45,609 bases of DNA, taken from NCBI GenBank assembly GCA_030873995.1, contig GCA_030873995.1_4701.1; one strand, given 5' to 3'. Position numbers and translations under genes: made by a program. Below the pieces are notes generated by a model. The model made no database searches, was not told where the DNA came from, and worked only from the letters and a program-made list of their open reading frames with translations. Within the stretch, counting starts at the first letter, position 1. Each line of letters starts with the position of its first letter. Shown here piece by piece: positions 24,399 through 33,110 of the stretch. The stretch is from a phage.

Positions 24399-26582
24399 AT
24401 GCTTCAAAGATTAGGGGCAATGTTTGTTCGGTACAAAAATAAAGTAGGTAATGCTATCGAGCGTACACTACAAAGTAAATTACAGGATGTAGTAAGTGTA
24501 AAGGATTATGGCGCTATTGGTGATGGAGTATATCGTTCACTTGGTGCTAAATTTACCACGTTAAGTATGGCACAAGTAGTATACCCGCATGCGGAAAGTT
24601 TAACTCAATCGCAAGATTGGGCGGCTATTCAGGCTGCACTTAATTCTCACTCAAAAGTGTACATTCCAGCAGGTAAGTACATGCTATCTGATACCATTGA
24701 GATGCGCGGCGGTCAAACTCTGCAAGGTGACGGTATTGATTCTTGGGTTGCAGGTTATGCTGGGTTTGTAAAAGATAATCAAGGCACTCACCTCATAATG
24801 GTGGGAGATGGAAATAAGAAGTATACATTAGATCATGTATCTAACTTCGATGTAGAAGGTGGTGTCATAGACAACCCAGCGAAGAGTGATGCTTATACTG
24901 CCACTGCACCTTCCCCTAATTACTCATTTACTAACTTCACTAACGCTAACGCCTCTGGTGCACAACGTGCTACATTGAAACCTTTCAGCGTAGCATTACG
25001 TTGCACAGGTCACGGTGGTGTTTATCTTCGTGACTTCCGTATTGTGCCTAATCACAGAGGGCAAGAAGGTTATAAGGATGAGTTGTCAACTGCATTAGGG
25101 GACGCATGGGATGTAGGTATTTGGCTGGAGAATACATCTGACTCAGTGTTATCTTCTGTGCAAGCAGTTGGTTACTGGCGTATTGCAGGTGTTATGAAGA
25201 CTTGTATTCCACAAGAGGGTTCCTTTGTTGGTGGAGAGCGTGATAGGATATACAATTGCACATTACAAGGTTATCGTGGTTTCTTAGCACGTTCGCATGA
25301 TACTTACCAAGTAGAAGAAGTATCAGGTAACACTGTATCGATTAAGTGGTCTGCATCTCACACTTTCGAACCTTCTGGTAAAGTTCGTATCCAAGGGAAA
25401 GACCGTAGTTATACTAGCCTGTCTGTATCTGGTGACAAATTAGTCTTCAATGGTATTGACGATGTATCAGGTATTAATACCAATAGCTATGTGAGAGTTT
25501 CAGGGTCTTCATTCGGAATGTCTGCTACTCAACTAAATAACACATACATCGCTGCATTAAACCATCATGCTCGCTTGCCAGCAACCTCTAATCTTTTAGA
25601 TAATAGGTTTTCTACTTCGGCAGCTTGCTATGAAGTTGCAGGTGAACCAATTCGTGCCATAAAATTATCTAACTGTACTGTCATTACTTGGGATGACATC
25701 TTAGGTATGACTGGTGGTATTCGGGATTTCCAGACGACAGATACTTACTTCGAGTCTCAGCCTTTCCGTACTTCTGTGCAAGGCTTGGCAAGCACCACAC
25801 AACCTGCTGGTTCTCGCATGATTGCACTTCGTGGACGTCAAGGTTCTAAAACTACAGGATATCAAGCTATCGGTTGTACTTATGGGCCAGGTGTAGACTT
25901 AAGTCCTCGTTATGAAAGCGATGTATCTCGTTACACAACTTCAGGTGGTATGTTCAATCCAAGAGAAGATTTGAACACAACTAAGCAGTTACCAATGAGG
26001 CAAGACGCTACTGAGCTATCTTCTACTTCTGACTTATTCCTTACACATGCTGTAGGGCGGAAGGCCTATGTTGGCGCTACCTCTGGTGATGCAACGCTTC
26101 AATCTAGAACTGGATCATTGAATATCCAATCAGGACTTCGTGTACGGATTGGTGGCACTGATGGTAGTGGTTGGTATATTGCTGACAGTGCTAAGTTGAC
26201 ACCTACTGCTGACAATGCAAGGGCTTGTGGACAGCCTAATGGACGATGGACTGTTGTCTATGCTGTTAATGGTACAATCCAGACTTCTGATGGTAGATTC
26301 AAGGAAATCCTTGAGATTGAACAGGCAGAACTTGATGCTGGTCTTGAATTATCAGCAAACCTAATTAAGTATCGGTGGAATGGGGAAGATAAAATTCACT
26401 TTGGTTGCATAGCACAAGAAGTGATGTTAATACTGGAGAAACATGGCCTAGACCCATTACAATATGATATGGTTCAGTATGATGAGGAGGCAGACATCTT
26501 TGGGGTAAACTATGCTGAACTCAACAGCTTCTGTATTGCAGCATTATCGAGGAAGTTAAATGCCATTAATAAAATCAGTTAA
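24399..26582 (+). CDS. tailspike 2 with C-terminal intramolecular chaperone (peptidase S74-like) domain
   Basis: 727 aa; VKDYGAIGDG signature; C-terminal SDGRFKE...HFGCIAQE; AAGGAGG RBS. Confidence 0.75.
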   Translation: MLQRLGAMFVRYKNKVGNAIERTLQSKLQDVVSVKDYGAIGDGVYRSLGAKFTTLSMAQVVYPHAESLTQSQDWAAIQAALNSHSKVYIPAGKYMLSDTIEMRGGQTLQGDGIDSWVAGYAGFVKDNQGTHLIMVGDGNKKYTLDHVSNFDVEGGVIDNPAKSDAYTATAPSPNYSFTNFTNANASGAQRATLKPFSVALRCTGHGGVYLRDFRIVPNHRGQEGYKDELSTALGDAWDVGIWLENTSDSVLSSVQAVGYWRIAGVMKTCIPQEGSFVGGERDRIYNCTLQGYRGFLARSHDTYQVEEVSGNTVSIKWSASHTFEPSGKVRIQGKDRSYTSLSVSGDKLVFNGIDDVSGINTNSYVRVSGSSFGMSATQLNNTYIAALNHHARLPATSNLLDNRFSTSAACYEVAGEPIRAIKLSNCTVITWDDILGMTGGIRDFQTTDTYFESQPFRTSVQGLASTTQPAGSRMIALRGRQGSKTTGYQAIGCTYGPGVDLSPRYESDVSRYTTSGGMFNPREDLNTTKQLPMRQDATELSSTSDLFLTHAVGRKAYVGATSGDATLQSRTGSLNIQSGLRVRIGGTDGSGWYIADSAKLTPTADNARACGQPNGRWTVVYAVNGTIQTSDGRFKEILEIEQAELDAGLELSANLIKYRWNGEDKIHFGCIAQEVMLILEKHGLDPLQYDMVQYDEEADIFGVNYAELNSFCIAALSRKLNAINKIS

Positions 26583-26843: not shown

Positions 26844-26999
26844 ATGATTTGGATTCATACGTATGGTGTAGGGCCATTCAAGCAGAATGTACTCAGGAAG
26901 ATTCATGAGTCCGAGGAATCAGCCTTAGCCAGCCAGAAGGTACTTGGTGGAACTATCCAGTGCTACATGAAGAAGCCACAAGGCTTTGATTTAGGGTAA
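26844..26999 (+). CDS. hypothetical protein (51 aa) at the right end of the gene map
   Basis: ATG 26844 with AAAGGAGGTGA RBS; track ORF 26793 trimmed. Confidence 0.5.
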   Translation: MIWIHTYGVGPFKQNVLRKIHESEESALASQKVLGGTIQCYMKKPQGFDLG

Positions 27000-27686
27000 C
27001 CAAAGGTGGTCACAAAGTAACCAAAGTCAAAATTTTGATGTAGGCGTGTGTGAGGTGTCTCGCCCTCGCCCTCGCCGGGTTGTCCCCATAGGGTGGCCTG
27101 AGGGAATCCGTCTTCGACGGGCAGGGCTGATGTACTCCTTGCCTAGTACAAGGGAGGCGGAGTGAACGCCTGGGACGGCCTAGGGAATGGCTTAGTGGTG
27201 GACAAGGTGATTACCTTAGTGAAGCCTCTTAGTGCATTCCTTAGGCCATTCAGGGCGTTTATGAGGTATTGACAGGGTGGATGGGTGTGGGCTATCTGTT
27301 CGTTTCGCTACGCTTCACTCACTGCTCCTCACTTCGTTCGTCGCTGCGGTAGCCTGATGTGTACCTTAGGTTATTACTTGATGGATAGCTTAGGTTAGCC
27401 TTAGTGGATTACCTTAGTTAAAGCCTTAGTGCTTCACTTAGTATCAGCTTAGTAGTGTACCTTAGTCAGACTTAGTGTCTTCTCTTAGTGATTGCATAGC
27501 TAAAGCTATAAGATGCAAATAGGTCGCGGTCGGTAGACCGCTAAAGAAAGAGAATGGTAATAAGATGCAGTAGGAGGAACACCAGAAACCTAGCCAACCT
27601 AAGCTATCCTAGCTCTATATCTATTGCTTTTCCTTAGTCTAACACGTTAGACAACCTATCTTATTCTTAGTGATGGTAACTTAGTG

Positions 27687-27715
27687 TTGACAAGATAATC
27701 TTAGTGTAATACTAT
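27687..27715 (+). promoter_or_regulatory. sigma70-type early promoter candidate
   Basis: TTGACA, 17-bp spacer, TACTAT; first strong host-type promoter after the repeat-rich terminal region. Confidence 0.55.
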
Positions 27716-27787
27716 GCATCACGTAGGCGGTGCTGAGGCACCTAGTAGCCAGCTAGTAAGGCATACGAAGAGACTAGCGCTTACATT

Positions 27788-27800
27788 GCTCTTTAACAAT
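27788..27800 (+). promoter_or_regulatory. rrn-type boxA element (copy 1)
   Basis: GCTCTTTAACAAT identical to the rrn boxA core; about 65 nt after the predicted start of promoter 27687. Confidence 0.6.
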
Positions 27801-27858
27801 TTGCTTAGTGTAACCTATGTATGCCGTGGTTAATTACTTATTGAATGAGGTATTAACT

Positions 27859-28038
27859 ATGACATTAAACAACCGTGAACTATCCGTTCTCTTCACTCTG
27901 TTGTGCTACATGATTCGTAACAACGAATTGCTTACAGACGATGAGTTAGCCTTGTATCACCGCTTTCTTAACGAAGGTTGGACCGATACAGTTAATCAAT
28001 ACCGTAACATGATAGATGAGTTGAGGGAGGGTAAATAA
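27859..28038 (+). CDS. early hypothetical protein (59 aa)
   Basis: First ORF after a sigma70-like promoter and boxA; TGAGGT RBS. Confidence 0.5.
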   Translation: MTLNNRELSVLFTLLCYMIRNNELLTDDELALYHRFLNEGWTDTVNQYRNMIDELREGK

Positions 28039-28262
28039 TGTATCAACATGAGGTATTCTTTGAATCAGCTAGCGAAGCTATTCGCTTCCGTGATGATATG
28101 ATGCAAGCTGGTGTAGGCGTTGATGTGTATCACTATTTGATAGATTACGACACTGAATATCACCGAGTTACCTTAGTATCTGAGTATGACAACCAAGTCA
28201 TTACTGAGTATCTAGGCAGTGAAGATTACGATTACGATGAAGTAATCACGACAAATCTCTAA
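28038..28262 (+). CDS. early, highly acidic hypothetical protein (74 aa)
   Basis: TAATG coupling to the upstream ORF; GGAGGG RBS; 17 Asp/Glu against 3 Arg. Confidence 0.55.
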   Translation: MYQHEVFFESASEAIRFRDDMMQAGVGVDVYHYLIDYDTEYHRVTLVSEYDNQVITEYLGSEDYDYDEVITTNL

Positions 28263-28270
28263 ATTAACTG

Positions 28271-28299
28271 TTGACAGCCACGGCATACAAGGTTACATT
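28271..28299 (+). promoter_or_regulatory. sigma70-type early promoter candidate 2
   Basis: TTGACA, 17-bp spacer, TACATT. Confidence 0.4.
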
Positions 28300-28332
28300 A
28301 AGCATCAAGACGGCGACGTCTTTAAACATCCC

Positions 28333-28345
28333 GCTCTTTAACAAT
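28333..28345 (+). promoter_or_regulatory. rrn-type boxA element (copy 2)
   Basis: GCTCTTTAACAAT; preceded by hairpin AGACGGCGACGTCT (28308..28321). Confidence 0.6.
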
Positions 28346-28391
28346 ACGGTTTGTGTCTTGATAGGCTAACTAACTAACTAAGGTAATTATC

Positions 28392-28502
28392 ATGAAAGGT
28401 TTAATTTGTGTAGAACGTATGATCAATGGTAAACTTGAAATATTACCACTGGAAAACCAATCTAGCTTCAAAGAGTGGTATGGCTGTTTCTCACTGATTT
28501 AA
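28392..28502 (+). CDS. possible tiny ORF (36 aa) between the second and third boxA
   Basis: ATG with AAGGT upstream; no other support. Confidence 0.2.
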   Translation: MKGLICVERMINGKLEILPLENQSSFKEWYGCFSLI

Positions 28503-28544
28503 AGTAAAGGCTGGCACTAGTCAGCCTATCAAGGCGCAAACCAA

Positions 28545-28557
28545 GCTCTTTAACAAT
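28545..28557 (+). promoter_or_regulatory. rrn-type boxA element (copy 3)
   Basis: GCTCTTTAACAAT; preceded by hairpin AGGCTG-8nt-CAGCCT (28509..28528); upstream of ocr. Confidence 0.6.
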
Positions 28558-28653
28558 TTAGATGGTAGCTTCTTAGTCTGGATAGGTTAAACCTAGGGTA
28601 TTCTTTTGAGTACCCTATAATGTAACCTAACTAACTAAATGAGGATTAATAAC

Positions 28654-29013
28654 ATGGCTATGTCTAATATGACTTACTCTCAGGTTTACAACAACGCTCA
28701 TGCTGCATTAGTTGAACGTATCTGGAATGATGCTATTGATTGTATTGATAACGCACATGATGCAATCCATGATGTGGCGGATAGTGCTGTACCAATCTAT
28801 TATGCTGACATCTTCTCCGTGATGGCGAGTGAAGGAATTGATCATTTCTTCGAAGACTCCGGCCTGATGCCAGACACTAAGGATGTAACGGTAGTATTGC
28901 AAGCCCGTATCTATGAGCAACTCACAATTGATCTATGGGAACGTGTTCAGTATATGATTGTTGAATACATCAACTCCGCCGAATATTTAGAAGAAGAAGA
29001 AGAGGAAGAATAA
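28654..29013 (+). CDS. ocr: Ocr (T7 gp0.3) DNA-mimic anti-restriction protein
   Basis: MAMSNMTY...[49 protein letters not shown] closely matches T7 Ocr as recalled; poly-Glu tail; GAGGA RBS. Confidence 0.9.
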
Positions 29014-29014
29014 G

Positions 29015-29128
29015 ATGGAAAAGCTATACAACTTTATCTTTTCAGACGGTGTAACCCTGAAGTGTTCCCTACGATTCGCACAAATTCGTGAGGAAGTACT
29101 AGGCACTACATACAAACTATTTAGCTGA
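29015..29128 (+). CDS. small ORF (37 aa) directly after ocr
   Basis: ATG 2 nt after the ocr stop; no homology recognised. Confidence 0.35.
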   Translation: MEKLYNFIFSDGVTLKCSLRFAQIREEVLGTTYKLFS

Positions 29129-29141
29129 CACTATAAGAGAA
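29119..29141 (+). promoter_or_regulatory. variant phage-RNAP promoter candidate with A at +1
   Basis: ATTTAGCTGACACTATAAGAGAA; three mismatches at -12 to -10; lies in the early region upstream of the RNAP gene. Confidence 0.4.
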
Positions 29142-29204
29142 GGCTTAACAAGGCGTTGCTACGGTAGCGCCTGATTAAACTTTCACTTACTAGGAGTTAA
29201 GACT

Positions 29205-29432
29205 ATGGATTTAGATAGCATCATTATGGCATTTGCTCTTATTGGCTTAAGCTGGTGCTCCTATCACCTTTACCGTGAGTTCTTATTTGATAAAGCTAAA
29301 CGCAAACTAAGAAAGGAAGGCGGTAATTACCTTTGTGTAAGAGGTGGGCTTGTAGAATACATTGCACCTAACGGCACGGAATGCGCCATTAGCAAAGATG
29401 CATTTATAGAAACGTGGCATTACATCAAGTAA
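29205..29432 (+). CDS. early small membrane protein (75 aa)
   Basis: AGGAG RBS; N-terminal TM helix IIMAFALIGLSWCSY. Confidence 0.55.
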   Translation: MDLDSIIMAFALIGLSWCSYHLYREFLFDKAKRKLRKEGGNYLCVRGGLVEYIAPNGTECAISKDAFIETWHYIK

Positions 29433-29495
29433 CTAGCCTATAGCCTACCTGAGTGGGCTATGTGATATTTACTTACACTATATAAGGTGACTATT

Positions 29496-30419
29496 ATGAC
29501 TACTGAAAACACCCTCCTGTCTGTTCGTGAAGCTGCAACCGCTGAAATCAAGCAGCACTTAGACAATATCGGCACTTCTTACATCAAAGTTGGCGCTTGT
29601 CTGAATGAATTACGCGGTGATTTCGAAGGTCAAAAAGACTTTTTAGCTTATGTAGAATCAGAGTTTGGCATCAAGAAAGCACAATGCTACAAGCTGATGA
29701 GTGTAGCCCGTGTCTTTGAAGGAGACGAACGCTTTAAAGGTGTGGCTATGCGTGTAATGCTGGCGCTTGTTCCTTTCGCTGATGAAAATATAATCATGGA
29801 GAAGGCCGCAGAACTCGCCGCAGCTGGCAAGCTGGACACTAATGCCGTAAATGCCCTGATTGATCCTAAGAAAGAGACAAAGGCCGAGACGGTACAATCT
29901 AAGGCTGAGACAGTAAAACCGCAGGAGAACGCGACTGAGGCCGCAGAAACTATGCAAGGACATGCAACCTTTGAGGATTTCATCTTAGAGAAGGCGAAGG
30001 AGGAGTTACAAAGTGTGCCGCCAGTAAGTGAGTCGGGTAACGACGAATCCGCACCGTGGGAAGATGAAAGCAAGCCGGAAGGCACAAAGGCAGCACCGCT
30101 GGATAACACGGTTAATACCGAAAACGCCGCTATTGCTGGTCTGCTGGCACAAATTAAAGCACTGACCGAGCAATTACAGGCAGCTAATGACCGCATTGCC
30201 TCCTTAAGCAGCGCACGCGAAAGCAAGAAAGCAGCCGCGCCTATGCTGCCGCAATTCAAATCTTCCTGCTTCTATGCTCGCTTAGGTTTAAGCGCTGAGG
30301 AGGCAACGAAGAAAACAGCAGTTAACAAGGCACGCCGCGAACTGGTTAAGCTAGGCTACGGCGAAGGCCATGAAGCATGGCCCTTAATCTCTGAGGCAGT
30401 AGAAGAATTAACTAAGTAA
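29496..30419 (+). CDS. early protein of unknown function (307 aa) immediately upstream of the RNAP gene
   Basis: AAGGTG RBS; Ala/Glu-rich low-complexity middle; occupies the T7 gene 0.7 position but has no kinase motifs. Confidence 0.6.
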   Translation: MTTENTLLSVREAATAEIKQHLDNIGTSYIKVGACLNELRGDFEGQKDFLAYVESEFGIKKAQCYKLMSVARVFEGDERFKGVAMRVMLALVPFADENIIMEKAAELAAAGKLDTNAVNALIDPKKETKAETVQSKAETVKPQENATEAAETMQGHATFEDFILEKAKEELQSVPPVSESGNDESAPWEDESKPEGTKAAPLDNTVNTENAAIAGLLAQIKALTEQLQAANDRIASLSSARESKKAAAPMLPQFKSSCFYARLGLSAEEATKKTAVNKARRELVKLGYGEGHEAWPLISEAVEELTK

Positions 30420-30482
30420 CCTTATCGGTGGCATCTTCTTAGGTGTCACCTATTAAGGTTTCTTTCACTAGGAGTAAACAAG

Positions 30483-33110
30483 ATGCAAGACCTACACGCT
30501 ATTCAACTTCAACTTGAAGAAGAAATGTTTAACGGAGGTATCCGTCGCTTTGAAGCGGACCAACAACGCCAGATTGCATCCGGTAATGAATCCGACACGG
30601 CATGGAATCGCCGCTTATTGTCTGAGTTAATCGCGCCAATGGCTGAAGGCATTCAGGCATACAAGGAAGAGTATGAAGGTAAAAGAGGCCGTGCACCGCG
30701 TGCATTAGCTTTCATTAACTGCGTAGAAAACGAAGTGGCAGCATATATCACGATGAAAATCGTTATGGATATGCTGAACACGGATGTAACCTTGCAGGCT
30801 ATAGCCATGAATGTAGCTGACCGCATTGAGGACCAAGTACGTTTTAGCAAGCTGGAAGGTCACGCCGCCAAATACTTTGAGAAAGTTAAGAAGTCACTTA
30901 AGGCAAGTAAGACTAAATCATATCGCCATGCGCACAACGTAGCGGTCGTGGCTGAGAAGTCAGTAGCTGACCGTGACGCTGATTTCTCTCGCTGGGAGGC
31001 GTGGCCTAAAGATACCTTGCTACAAATCGGTATGACCTTGCTAGAAATACTGGAAAATAGTGTATTCTTCAATGGTCAGCCTGTCTTTCTTCGCACCTTG
31101 CGCACTAATGGTGGCAAGCATGGCGTTTACTACTTACAGACTAGCGAACACGTGGGTGAATGGATAACTGCATTTAAAGAGCACGTAGCTCAGCTGAGTC
31201 CAGCCTATGCGCCTTGCGTTATTCCTCCTCGTCCGTGGGTTTCTCCGTTTAATGGTGGCTTCCATACCGAGAAAGTGGCGAGTCGTATTCGTCTGGTTAA
31301 AGGAAACCGCGAGCACGTCCGCAAGCTGACCAAAAAGCAAATGCCAGCGGTTTACAAGGCTGTTAACGCTTTGCAGGCGACTAAGTGGCAGGTTAATAAA
31401 GAGGTTTTGCAGGTAGTAGAGGACGTTATCCGTCTCGACCTTGGTTATGGTGTGCCTTCCTTTAAACCGCTCATCGACCGTGAGAACAAGCCAGCTAATC
31501 CAGTGCCGTTAGAGTTCCAGCACCTGCGAGGCCGTGAACTTAAAGAGATGCTAACGCCGGAACAATGGCAAGCCTTCATCAACTGGAAAGGCGAATGTAC
31601 CAAGCTGTATACCGCTGAAACTAAGCGCGGCAGCAAGTCGGCGGCAACCGTTCGTATGGTCGGGCAGGCCCGTAAATACAGCCAGTTTGACGCAATATAC
31701 TTCGTGTATGCACTGGATAGCCGTTCACGCGTTTATGCGCAATCTAGCACGCTCTCGCCGCAATCAAACGACTTAGGCAAGGCATTGCTCCGTTTTACCG
31801 AAGGGCAGCGTCTTGATAGCGCTGAGGCGCTTAAGTGGTTTTTGGTGAACGGGGCGAATAACTGGGGTTGGGATAAGAAAACTTTTGACGTGCGCACCTC
31901 TAACGTGCTGGATGGCGAATTTCAAGACATGTGCCGCGACATTGCAGCCGATCCGCTGACCTTCACTCAATGGGTAAATGCTGATTCCCCTTACGGCTTC
32001 CTTGCATGGTGCTTTGAATATGCGCGTTATCTGGATGCACTGGATGAAGGCACGCAAGACCAATTCATGACGCACCTACCCGTCCATCAAGACGGTAGTT
32101 GCTCTGGTATCCAGCACTATAGCGCGATGTTACGCGATGAAGTAGGTGCGAAAGCAGTAAACCTTAAGCCTTCTGACTTCCCTCAAGATATTTATGGCGC
32201 GGTTGCGCAGGTTGTTATCCAGAAGAATTACGCCTACATGAATGCAGACGATGCAGAGACTTTCACATCTGGAAGCGTCACACTTACAGGTGCAGAACTG
32301 CGTAGCATGGCTAGTGCGTGGGATATGATAGGAATAACTCGCGGATTGACCAAAAAGCCCGTAATGACACTACCTTATGGCAGCACACGTCTAACCTGCC
32401 GTGAATCAGTGATTGATTATATCGTTGATTTGGAAGAAAAAGAGGCCCAACGAGCTATTGCGGAAGGGCGTACCGCCAATCCTGTACACCCTTTTGATAA
32501 TGACCGTAAGGACAGCCTGACACCTAGCGCAGCTTATAACTATATGACAGCTTTAATCTGGCCTTCTATTTCGGAAGTGGTTAAAGCTCCTATAGTGGCA
32601 ATGAAAATGATTCGTCAGCTTGCCCGTTTCGCAGCTAAAAGGAATGAAGGCTTAGAGTATACCTTGCCTACTGGCTTCATCTTGCAACAAAAGATTATGG
32701 CTACTGATATGCTCCGCGTATCCACTTGCCTGATGGGAGAAATCAAGATGAGTCTACAGATTGAAACGGACGTAGTGGATGAAACGGCTATGATGGGCGC
32801 TGCTGCTCCTAACTTTGTGCATGGTCATGATGCCAGTCACCTTATCTTAACAGTCTGCGACCTTGTTGATAAAGGGATTACATCTATCGCAGTCATTCAT
32901 GATTCTTTCGGTACTCACGCAGGCCGTACAGCCGATCTTCGTGATAGCTTAAGGGCAGAAATGGTGAAGATGTATCAAGGCCGTAATGCCCTGCAAAGCC
33001 TGTTAGATGAGCATGAAGAACGCTGGTTAGTAGACACCGGAATCCAAGTGCCAGAGCAAGGAGAGTTTGACCTTAACGAAATCTTAGTATCTGACTATTG
33101 CTTCGCATAA
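30483..33110 (+). CDS. single-subunit DNA-dependent RNA polymerase (T7/SP6 type)
   Basis: 875 aa; [17 protein letters not shown] and HDSFGT catalytic motifs; C-terminus ends CFA. Confidence 0.95.

Follow-up and report, generated by a model that had tools for sequence, protein, structure and literature searches.

What is a gene so like the anti-restriction gene of phage T7 doing in a genome of the SP6 type? The question is raised by a short open reading frame (ORF) in a stretch of phage DNA of 45,609 nucleotides (NCBI GenBank assembly GCA_030873995.1, contig GCA_030873995.1_4701.1), referred to below as the window, and it can be answered in different ways: the ORF may be (i) an ordinary member of the Ocr family at its usual place, (ii) a variant whose function has shifted, (iii) a recent import from T7 or (iv) a decaying remnant or chance ORF. 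The first answer is very probably the right one. Specifically, the product of the ORF would be a functional Ocr, small, helical and very acidic, which forms homodimers and imitates bent B-form DNA, and the gene would be native to the SP6-like early region. The gene and the elements adjoining it are, in window coordinates:

28654..29013, + strand: ocr coding sequence (CDS), 119 aa plus stop; a T7/SP6-type allele that only some Vectrevirus phages carry
28641..28645, + strand: Shine-Dalgarno element GAGGA, 8 nt 5′ of the ocr ATG, read directly from the sequence
29015..29128, + strand: gene 4, 37 aa, PHROG 11746 (function unknown), starting 2 nt after the ocr stop

The reading frame is intact over its 119 codons, from the ATG at 28654 to the TAA at 29011-29013, and the GAGGA element is also found upstream of ocr in K1E, K1-5 and EC120. 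A mechanically generated ORF list had placed the start five codons earlier, at 28639. This start was rejected, since T7, SP6 and every annotated relative begin with MAMSNMTY, and it is further disfavoured by the overlap of the GAGGA ribosome-binding site with that upstream ATG; the coordinates given in the first-pass annotation are therefore correct.

The first-pass annotation of this DNA had likened the ORF to T7 Ocr across most of its length, pointing to two sequence blocks and a poly-Glu tail. The resemblance in fact runs from end to end: both blocks and the tail (EEEEEEE) are identical in T7, and pairwise global alignment to T7 gp0.3 yields 76/117 identical positions (65.0%) with zero internal gaps, the two proteins being collinear over their full length. 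Among all PDB chains, phmmer matches T7 Ocr (1S7Z; E 9.3e-41, residues 1-117 on 1-117) and nine further entries of the same protein. At the level of families, the ORF scores 140.1 bits (cut-off 25; E 3.8e-41) with Pfam PF08684 ‘DNA mimic ocr’, the family of T7 Ocr, and is assigned to PHROG 2568 ‘ocr-like anti-restriction’ (E 9.2e-47), and no Ocr model was found in NCBIfam. Judged by sequence, the similarity to Ocr is far beyond chance, and the ORF is confirmed as an Ocr-family DNA mimic. ArdA of plasmids and transposons is a functional analogue (likewise acidic, dimeric and DNA-mimicking, and able to block type I restriction-modification (R-M) enzymes), but it is unrelated to Ocr in sequence and fold and constitutes a separate family.

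The gene is not new. Ocr homologues were found by tblastn in 572 of 50,697 phage records, and about 45 GenBank phage records carry the allele of the window at 90-100% aa identity, most of them annotated ‘protein Ocr’ (the Ocr of Vectrevirus DIJ06P1 is 100% identical to that of the window over residues 1-112). An Ocr of this type has also been noted as conserved among Vectrevirus phages in the Sem1-4 phage paper (2026; PMC13005862). Therefore, the feature is already known, being publicly annotated as well as discussed.

That the backbone is SP6-like, as the first-pass annotation had proposed, is borne out by the RNA polymerase (RNAP) and by the promoters. The RNAP (30483-33110) is 99.2% identical to that of K1-5, 98.5% to that of K1E and 85.8% to that of SP6, against 36.2% for T7. 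Twelve matches to the SP6-type promoter motif GACACTATA lie in the window, all on the + strand, where 0.5 would be expected by chance, and their consensus is ATTTACTGGACACTATAGAAG. Megablast with both halves of the window retrieves Vectrevirus EEc4, LF31P3, 6948, LL11 and others, which cover 85-95% of the query at an identity of ~95-97%. The first nucleotide of K1E and of K1-5 falls at window 27058-27060, which marks the physical left end (~27058). Therefore, the window holds a linear Vectrevirus genome of ~45 kb in circularly permuted form; neither a duplicated terminal repeat nor an assembly overlap was found at the window ends.

A second tailspike gene (24399-26582, + strand, 727 aa) was noted in the same window. 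It combines a pectate-lyase-like domain with a C-terminal S74 chaperone domain, near-identical DNA occurs in only 2 of the 50,697 phage records (KMB14 and LF31P3), and it is likely a host-range cassette of this phage.

Within this genome, ocr lies ~1.6 kb from the physical left end and precedes both the first phage promoter and the RNAP gene, an order that is the same in SP6, K1E and K1-5. The slot is occupied by SP6p05 (1637-1996) in SP6, by gene 3 (gp3) in K1E and by gp03 in K1-5, described in RefSeq as ‘ocr-like anti-restriction’, and it is followed in all three phages by the same small genes, a protein of ~300 aa and the RNAP gene. The first-pass annotation had taken the presence of Ocr beside an SP6-like gene order as a sign of mosaicism. 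This argument fails: since SP6, K1E and K1-5 have ocr in the identical slot, the gene is a standard part of the SP6-like backbone. The protein in the corresponding place between ocr and the RNAP gene of the window (29487-30419, + strand, 310 aa, PHROG 4571) is conserved in SP6, K1E and K1-5, and its sole Pfam signal is a weak coiled-coil-like match to SlyX. For the small ORFs neighbouring ocr, Pfam and PHROGs return only families of unknown function.

The elements that may govern expression of ocr, together with the full set of SP6-type promoters, are as follows:

28271..28299, + strand: nearest upstream sigma-70-like site, TTGACA-17-TACATT, a candidate early promoter only
28569..28644, + strand: two-tier RNA hairpin directly 5′ of ocr, a candidate RNase III processing site
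29115..29138 (29127), + strand: first SP6-type promoter to the right of the physical left end, tatttagctGACACTATAagagaag, downstream of ocr
4857, 18555, 20660, 22322, 29127, 33210, + strand: SP6-type promoters, ATTTACTGGACACTATAGAAG-like
35510, 36358, 40060, 40523, 41669, 45278, + strand: SP6-type promoters (continued), ATTTACTGGACACTATAGAAG-like

Because the first phage promoter lies downstream of ocr, the gene would be read by the host RNA polymerase, as its counterparts in T7 and SP6 are, and we infer that it is expressed early by that enzyme. The scan of the upstream region returned six sigma-70-like sites, among them another upstream match at 27687, against 6.9 expected from shuffled sequence; no specific host promoter is claimed, since such sites are no commoner than chance.

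The hairpin 5′ of ocr stands out more clearly. None of 200 shuffles folds equally well (minimum free energy z = -3.7), and its architecture of a 10-bp upper stem, a tetraloop, an internal loop and a lower stem is found upstream of ocr in T7, SP6, K1E, K1-5 and EC120, the shape being kept across these phages despite differing sequences. Relative to K1-5 and EC120, the window hairpin carries two compensatory pair changes, and covariation counts of this kind understate conservation, the MAFFT alignment of the hairpins being misregistered by about one base for T7 and SP6. An Rfam search of 26900-30600 placed no family at the hairpin. In T7, the R0.3 RNase III site lies at this position, and by analogy the window hairpin probably serves for processing by RNase III in the same way. 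A structured hairpin upstream and a location near the physical left end, as an early gene, are features that ocr of the window has in common with that of T7. The same Rfam search returned sub-threshold miRNA noise only, at 29128-29199; this is a palindromic hairpin directly after the first phage promoter, matched on two strands at 25 bits against a gathering threshold of 97, and it probably represents a further structure of the transcript-processing or terminator-like kind.

The predicted fold of the protein is that of Ocr. AlphaFold2, run on an alignment of 51 sequences (pLDDT 89.3, pTM 0.82), predicts a monomer of four helices (8-26, 35-45, 50-58 and 78-117), the C-terminal one being long, and this model superposes on solved Ocr structures. 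Specifically, the top eight Foldseek matches in the PDB are all T7 Ocr chains (TM 0.82-0.94, rmsd 1.1-1.8 Å), either free or together with BrxX/PglX, AriA, RNA polymerase or a type I methyltransferase, and beyond these eight chains the next PDB match has E > 1. The F53D/A57E mutant of T7 Ocr is monomeric, F53 and A57 being part of the hydrophobic dimer helix. In the window protein the helix residues 48-62, F53 and A57 included, are the same as in T7, which is consistent with homodimerisation as far as the sequence goes.

The excess of acidic residues is also present, at a reduced charge. The mature window protein (118 residues) contains 12 D and 14 E against 1 K and 3 R, for a net charge of -22, compared with -28 in both T7 and SP6 Ocr. 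It thus has 26 acidic residues where T7 has 34, eight fewer, and 12 of the 34 acidic positions of T7 are lost, almost entirely from aa12-35, aa92-99 and the C-terminal tail (the tail being acidic in both proteins); the substitutions relative to T7 include E64 to F, D96 to R, E98 to Q and D99 to Y. Mutagenesis of T7 Ocr has shown that the central acidic block aa59-91 is crucial for EcoKI inhibition (Roberts et al. 2012, PMC3439906). Seven of the eight acidic residues of this block (E59, D62, E64, E66, D67, D73, D76 and E87, as defined in PMC3439906) are retained in the window protein, the exception being E64. In the same study, aa12-35, aa92-99 and the tail could each be neutralised or deleted individually with wild-type activity, and a mutant with aa25-35 and aa92-99 neutralised together (Mut7) showed a mild defect (PMC3439906). 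Because this combined neutralisation mildly impairs T7 Ocr, some loss of potency, or an altered target range, is possible for the window protein by analogy.

Divergence from T7 is likewise uneven along the protein. The core (aa46-95) retains 44/50 residues, whereas the N-terminal arm (aa8-45) retains 17/38 (45%) and the end of the C-terminal helix (aa96-116) 7/21 (33%). The SP6 homologue (Gp5, product of gene 3; NP_853565.1) has the same slot, the same length of 119 aa, the same N-terminus and the conserved core, but is only 59.7% identical to the window protein, below the 76.9% between T7 and SP6. Within the window-type allele, selection is purifying (dN/dS 0.04-0.09 at dS 0.3-0.78 among seven alleles), and residues 47-98 are invariant across these seven.

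The gp3 proteins of K1E and K1-5 belong to the same Pfam family and are encoded at the identical locus, between flanks of 92-100% nucleotide identity, but they differ from the window protein in length (108-110 aa), in their N-terminus (MERNANAYY) and in a shorter C-terminal helix. In a 40-nt sliding comparison, identity to K1-5 and K1E is 92-98% up to 28646, drops to 35-70% across the ocr CDS and returns to 92-100% from 29007, with gene 4 as the conserved right flank. The replacement of the ocr CDS alone relative to K1E/K1-5, between conserved flanks, is real. The two Ocr proteins are 49-50% identical although the RNAPs are ~99% identical, and within Vectrevirus two ocr alleles (~49% identical) replace each other as exact CDS cassettes. 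The K1E-type allele is found in about 25 records at an identity of at least 90% and is 83.5% identical to the Ocr of K1F, a T7-like Kayfunavirus; therefore, ocr alleles cross subfamily boundaries.

The proposal of a mosaic early region thus proves correct, resting now on the precise swap of the ocr allele relative to K1E/K1-5 and on the patchwork of its neighbours, and no longer on the original reasoning from an Ocr in an SP6 backbone. As to these neighbours, the region 28299-28418, within a block of small genes (28299-28527), is 98-100% identical to K1-5 and 0-68% to K1E, and a gene of 75 aa at 29205-29432 (block 29205-29440) is 98-100% identical to K1E and 28-48% to K1-5.

A cassette that is exchanged so exactly, at a lower charge and with its changes gathered in the arms, could also be taken as a functionally shifted Ocr variant, in which the fold and core are kept while less acidic, remodelled arms alter binding or sensing. 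The shift might mean that abortive systems which sense Ocr, such as PARIS, are triggered less, or that the spectrum of R-M or BREX targets is different, and pressure from host defences would then maintain the two-allele polymorphism in Vectrevirus. The kinship of the K1E-type allele to an Ocr of another subfamily argues in the same direction, as does the finding that PARIS responds to a variety of small phage proteins of negative charge, Ocr included (PMC11464382). However, the arms are the very zones that tolerate single-zone changes in T7 Ocr, so that relaxed constraint and ancient divergence explain the pattern equally well, and the low dN/dS within the allele speaks of stabilising rather than ongoing diversifying selection. 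We consider such a shift unlikely. Its most specific form, in which the two alleles are non-equivalent and the low-charge window type keeps its anti-restriction and anti-BREX activity yet lowers PARIS-type detection, is a doubtful conjecture.

A recent horizontal import, by which an SP6-like genome would have acquired gene 0.3 from T7, is highly improbable. It would account for an Ocr that is 65% identical to that of T7 in a genome whose RNAP is merely 36% identical, and for T7-like nucleotides that are confined to the ocr CDS (in blastn, T7 similarity is found only at window 28651-28941, at 70%). However, nucleotide identity of the window gene to T7 and SP6 is just 67-70%, and synonymous sites are saturated in comparison with either phage (pS 0.67-0.88; 0.73-0.83 for T7); therefore, there has been no recent transfer. 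Neither in the 50,697 phage records nor in a collection of 5.8 billion proteins is there a donor above ~70% aa identity outside SP6-like genomes of ~44 kb. In the latter collection, relatives of more than 83% identity are mostly found on contigs of ~44 kb, the remainder on short fragments, and the next tier (~70% identity) consists of fragments and of T7-like contigs of ~39-41 kb. The import was rejected on account of the saturated synonymous sites and of the slot shared with SP6, K1E and K1-5. As for a decaying, non-functional remnant or a chance ORF, the loss of 12/34 acidic positions of T7 could be cited in its favour, but an intact frame with a ribosome-binding site, 90-100% conservation in about 45 genomes, the dN/dS of 0.04-0.09 and a confident structure model leave it a negligible probability.

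What is left is a copy of Ocr that is ordinary, already annotated and at its normal place in a K1E/K1-5-like (SP6-related) genome. For its mode of action, the classical scheme has the best support. Being located near the left end of the Vectrevirus genome, ocr would be transcribed by the host RNA polymerase while the DNA enters the cell, and the transcript would probably be processed at the upstream hairpin. The acidic protein would then dimerise and, as a mimic of bent DNA, compete for and fill the sites at which type I R-M enzymes and the BREX methyltransferase bind DNA. T7 Ocr inhibits BREX, and expression of the SP6 homologue, Gp5, has been shown to fully abolish Salmonella BREX defence (PMC11341690). 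Evasion of both type I R-M and BREX, as the first-pass annotation had predicted, is a reasonable expectation for the window protein on grounds of homology.

Beyond correct annotation the finding is of little significance, and only one point is mildly interesting, namely that ocr is clean in its polymorphism of two cassette alleles when the remainder of Vectrevirus is ~95-99% conserved. By homology, the gene would provide the phage with a means against type I restriction, and probably also against BREX, which bears on host range when such phages are used in therapy; it may also render the phage vulnerable to PARIS and other systems that Ocr triggers. If the window-type allele did lower such detection, the two alleles would be the trace of an arms race in which a defence trigger is at stake. 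With these natural variants one may ask which regions of a DNA mimic set evasion and which set detection.
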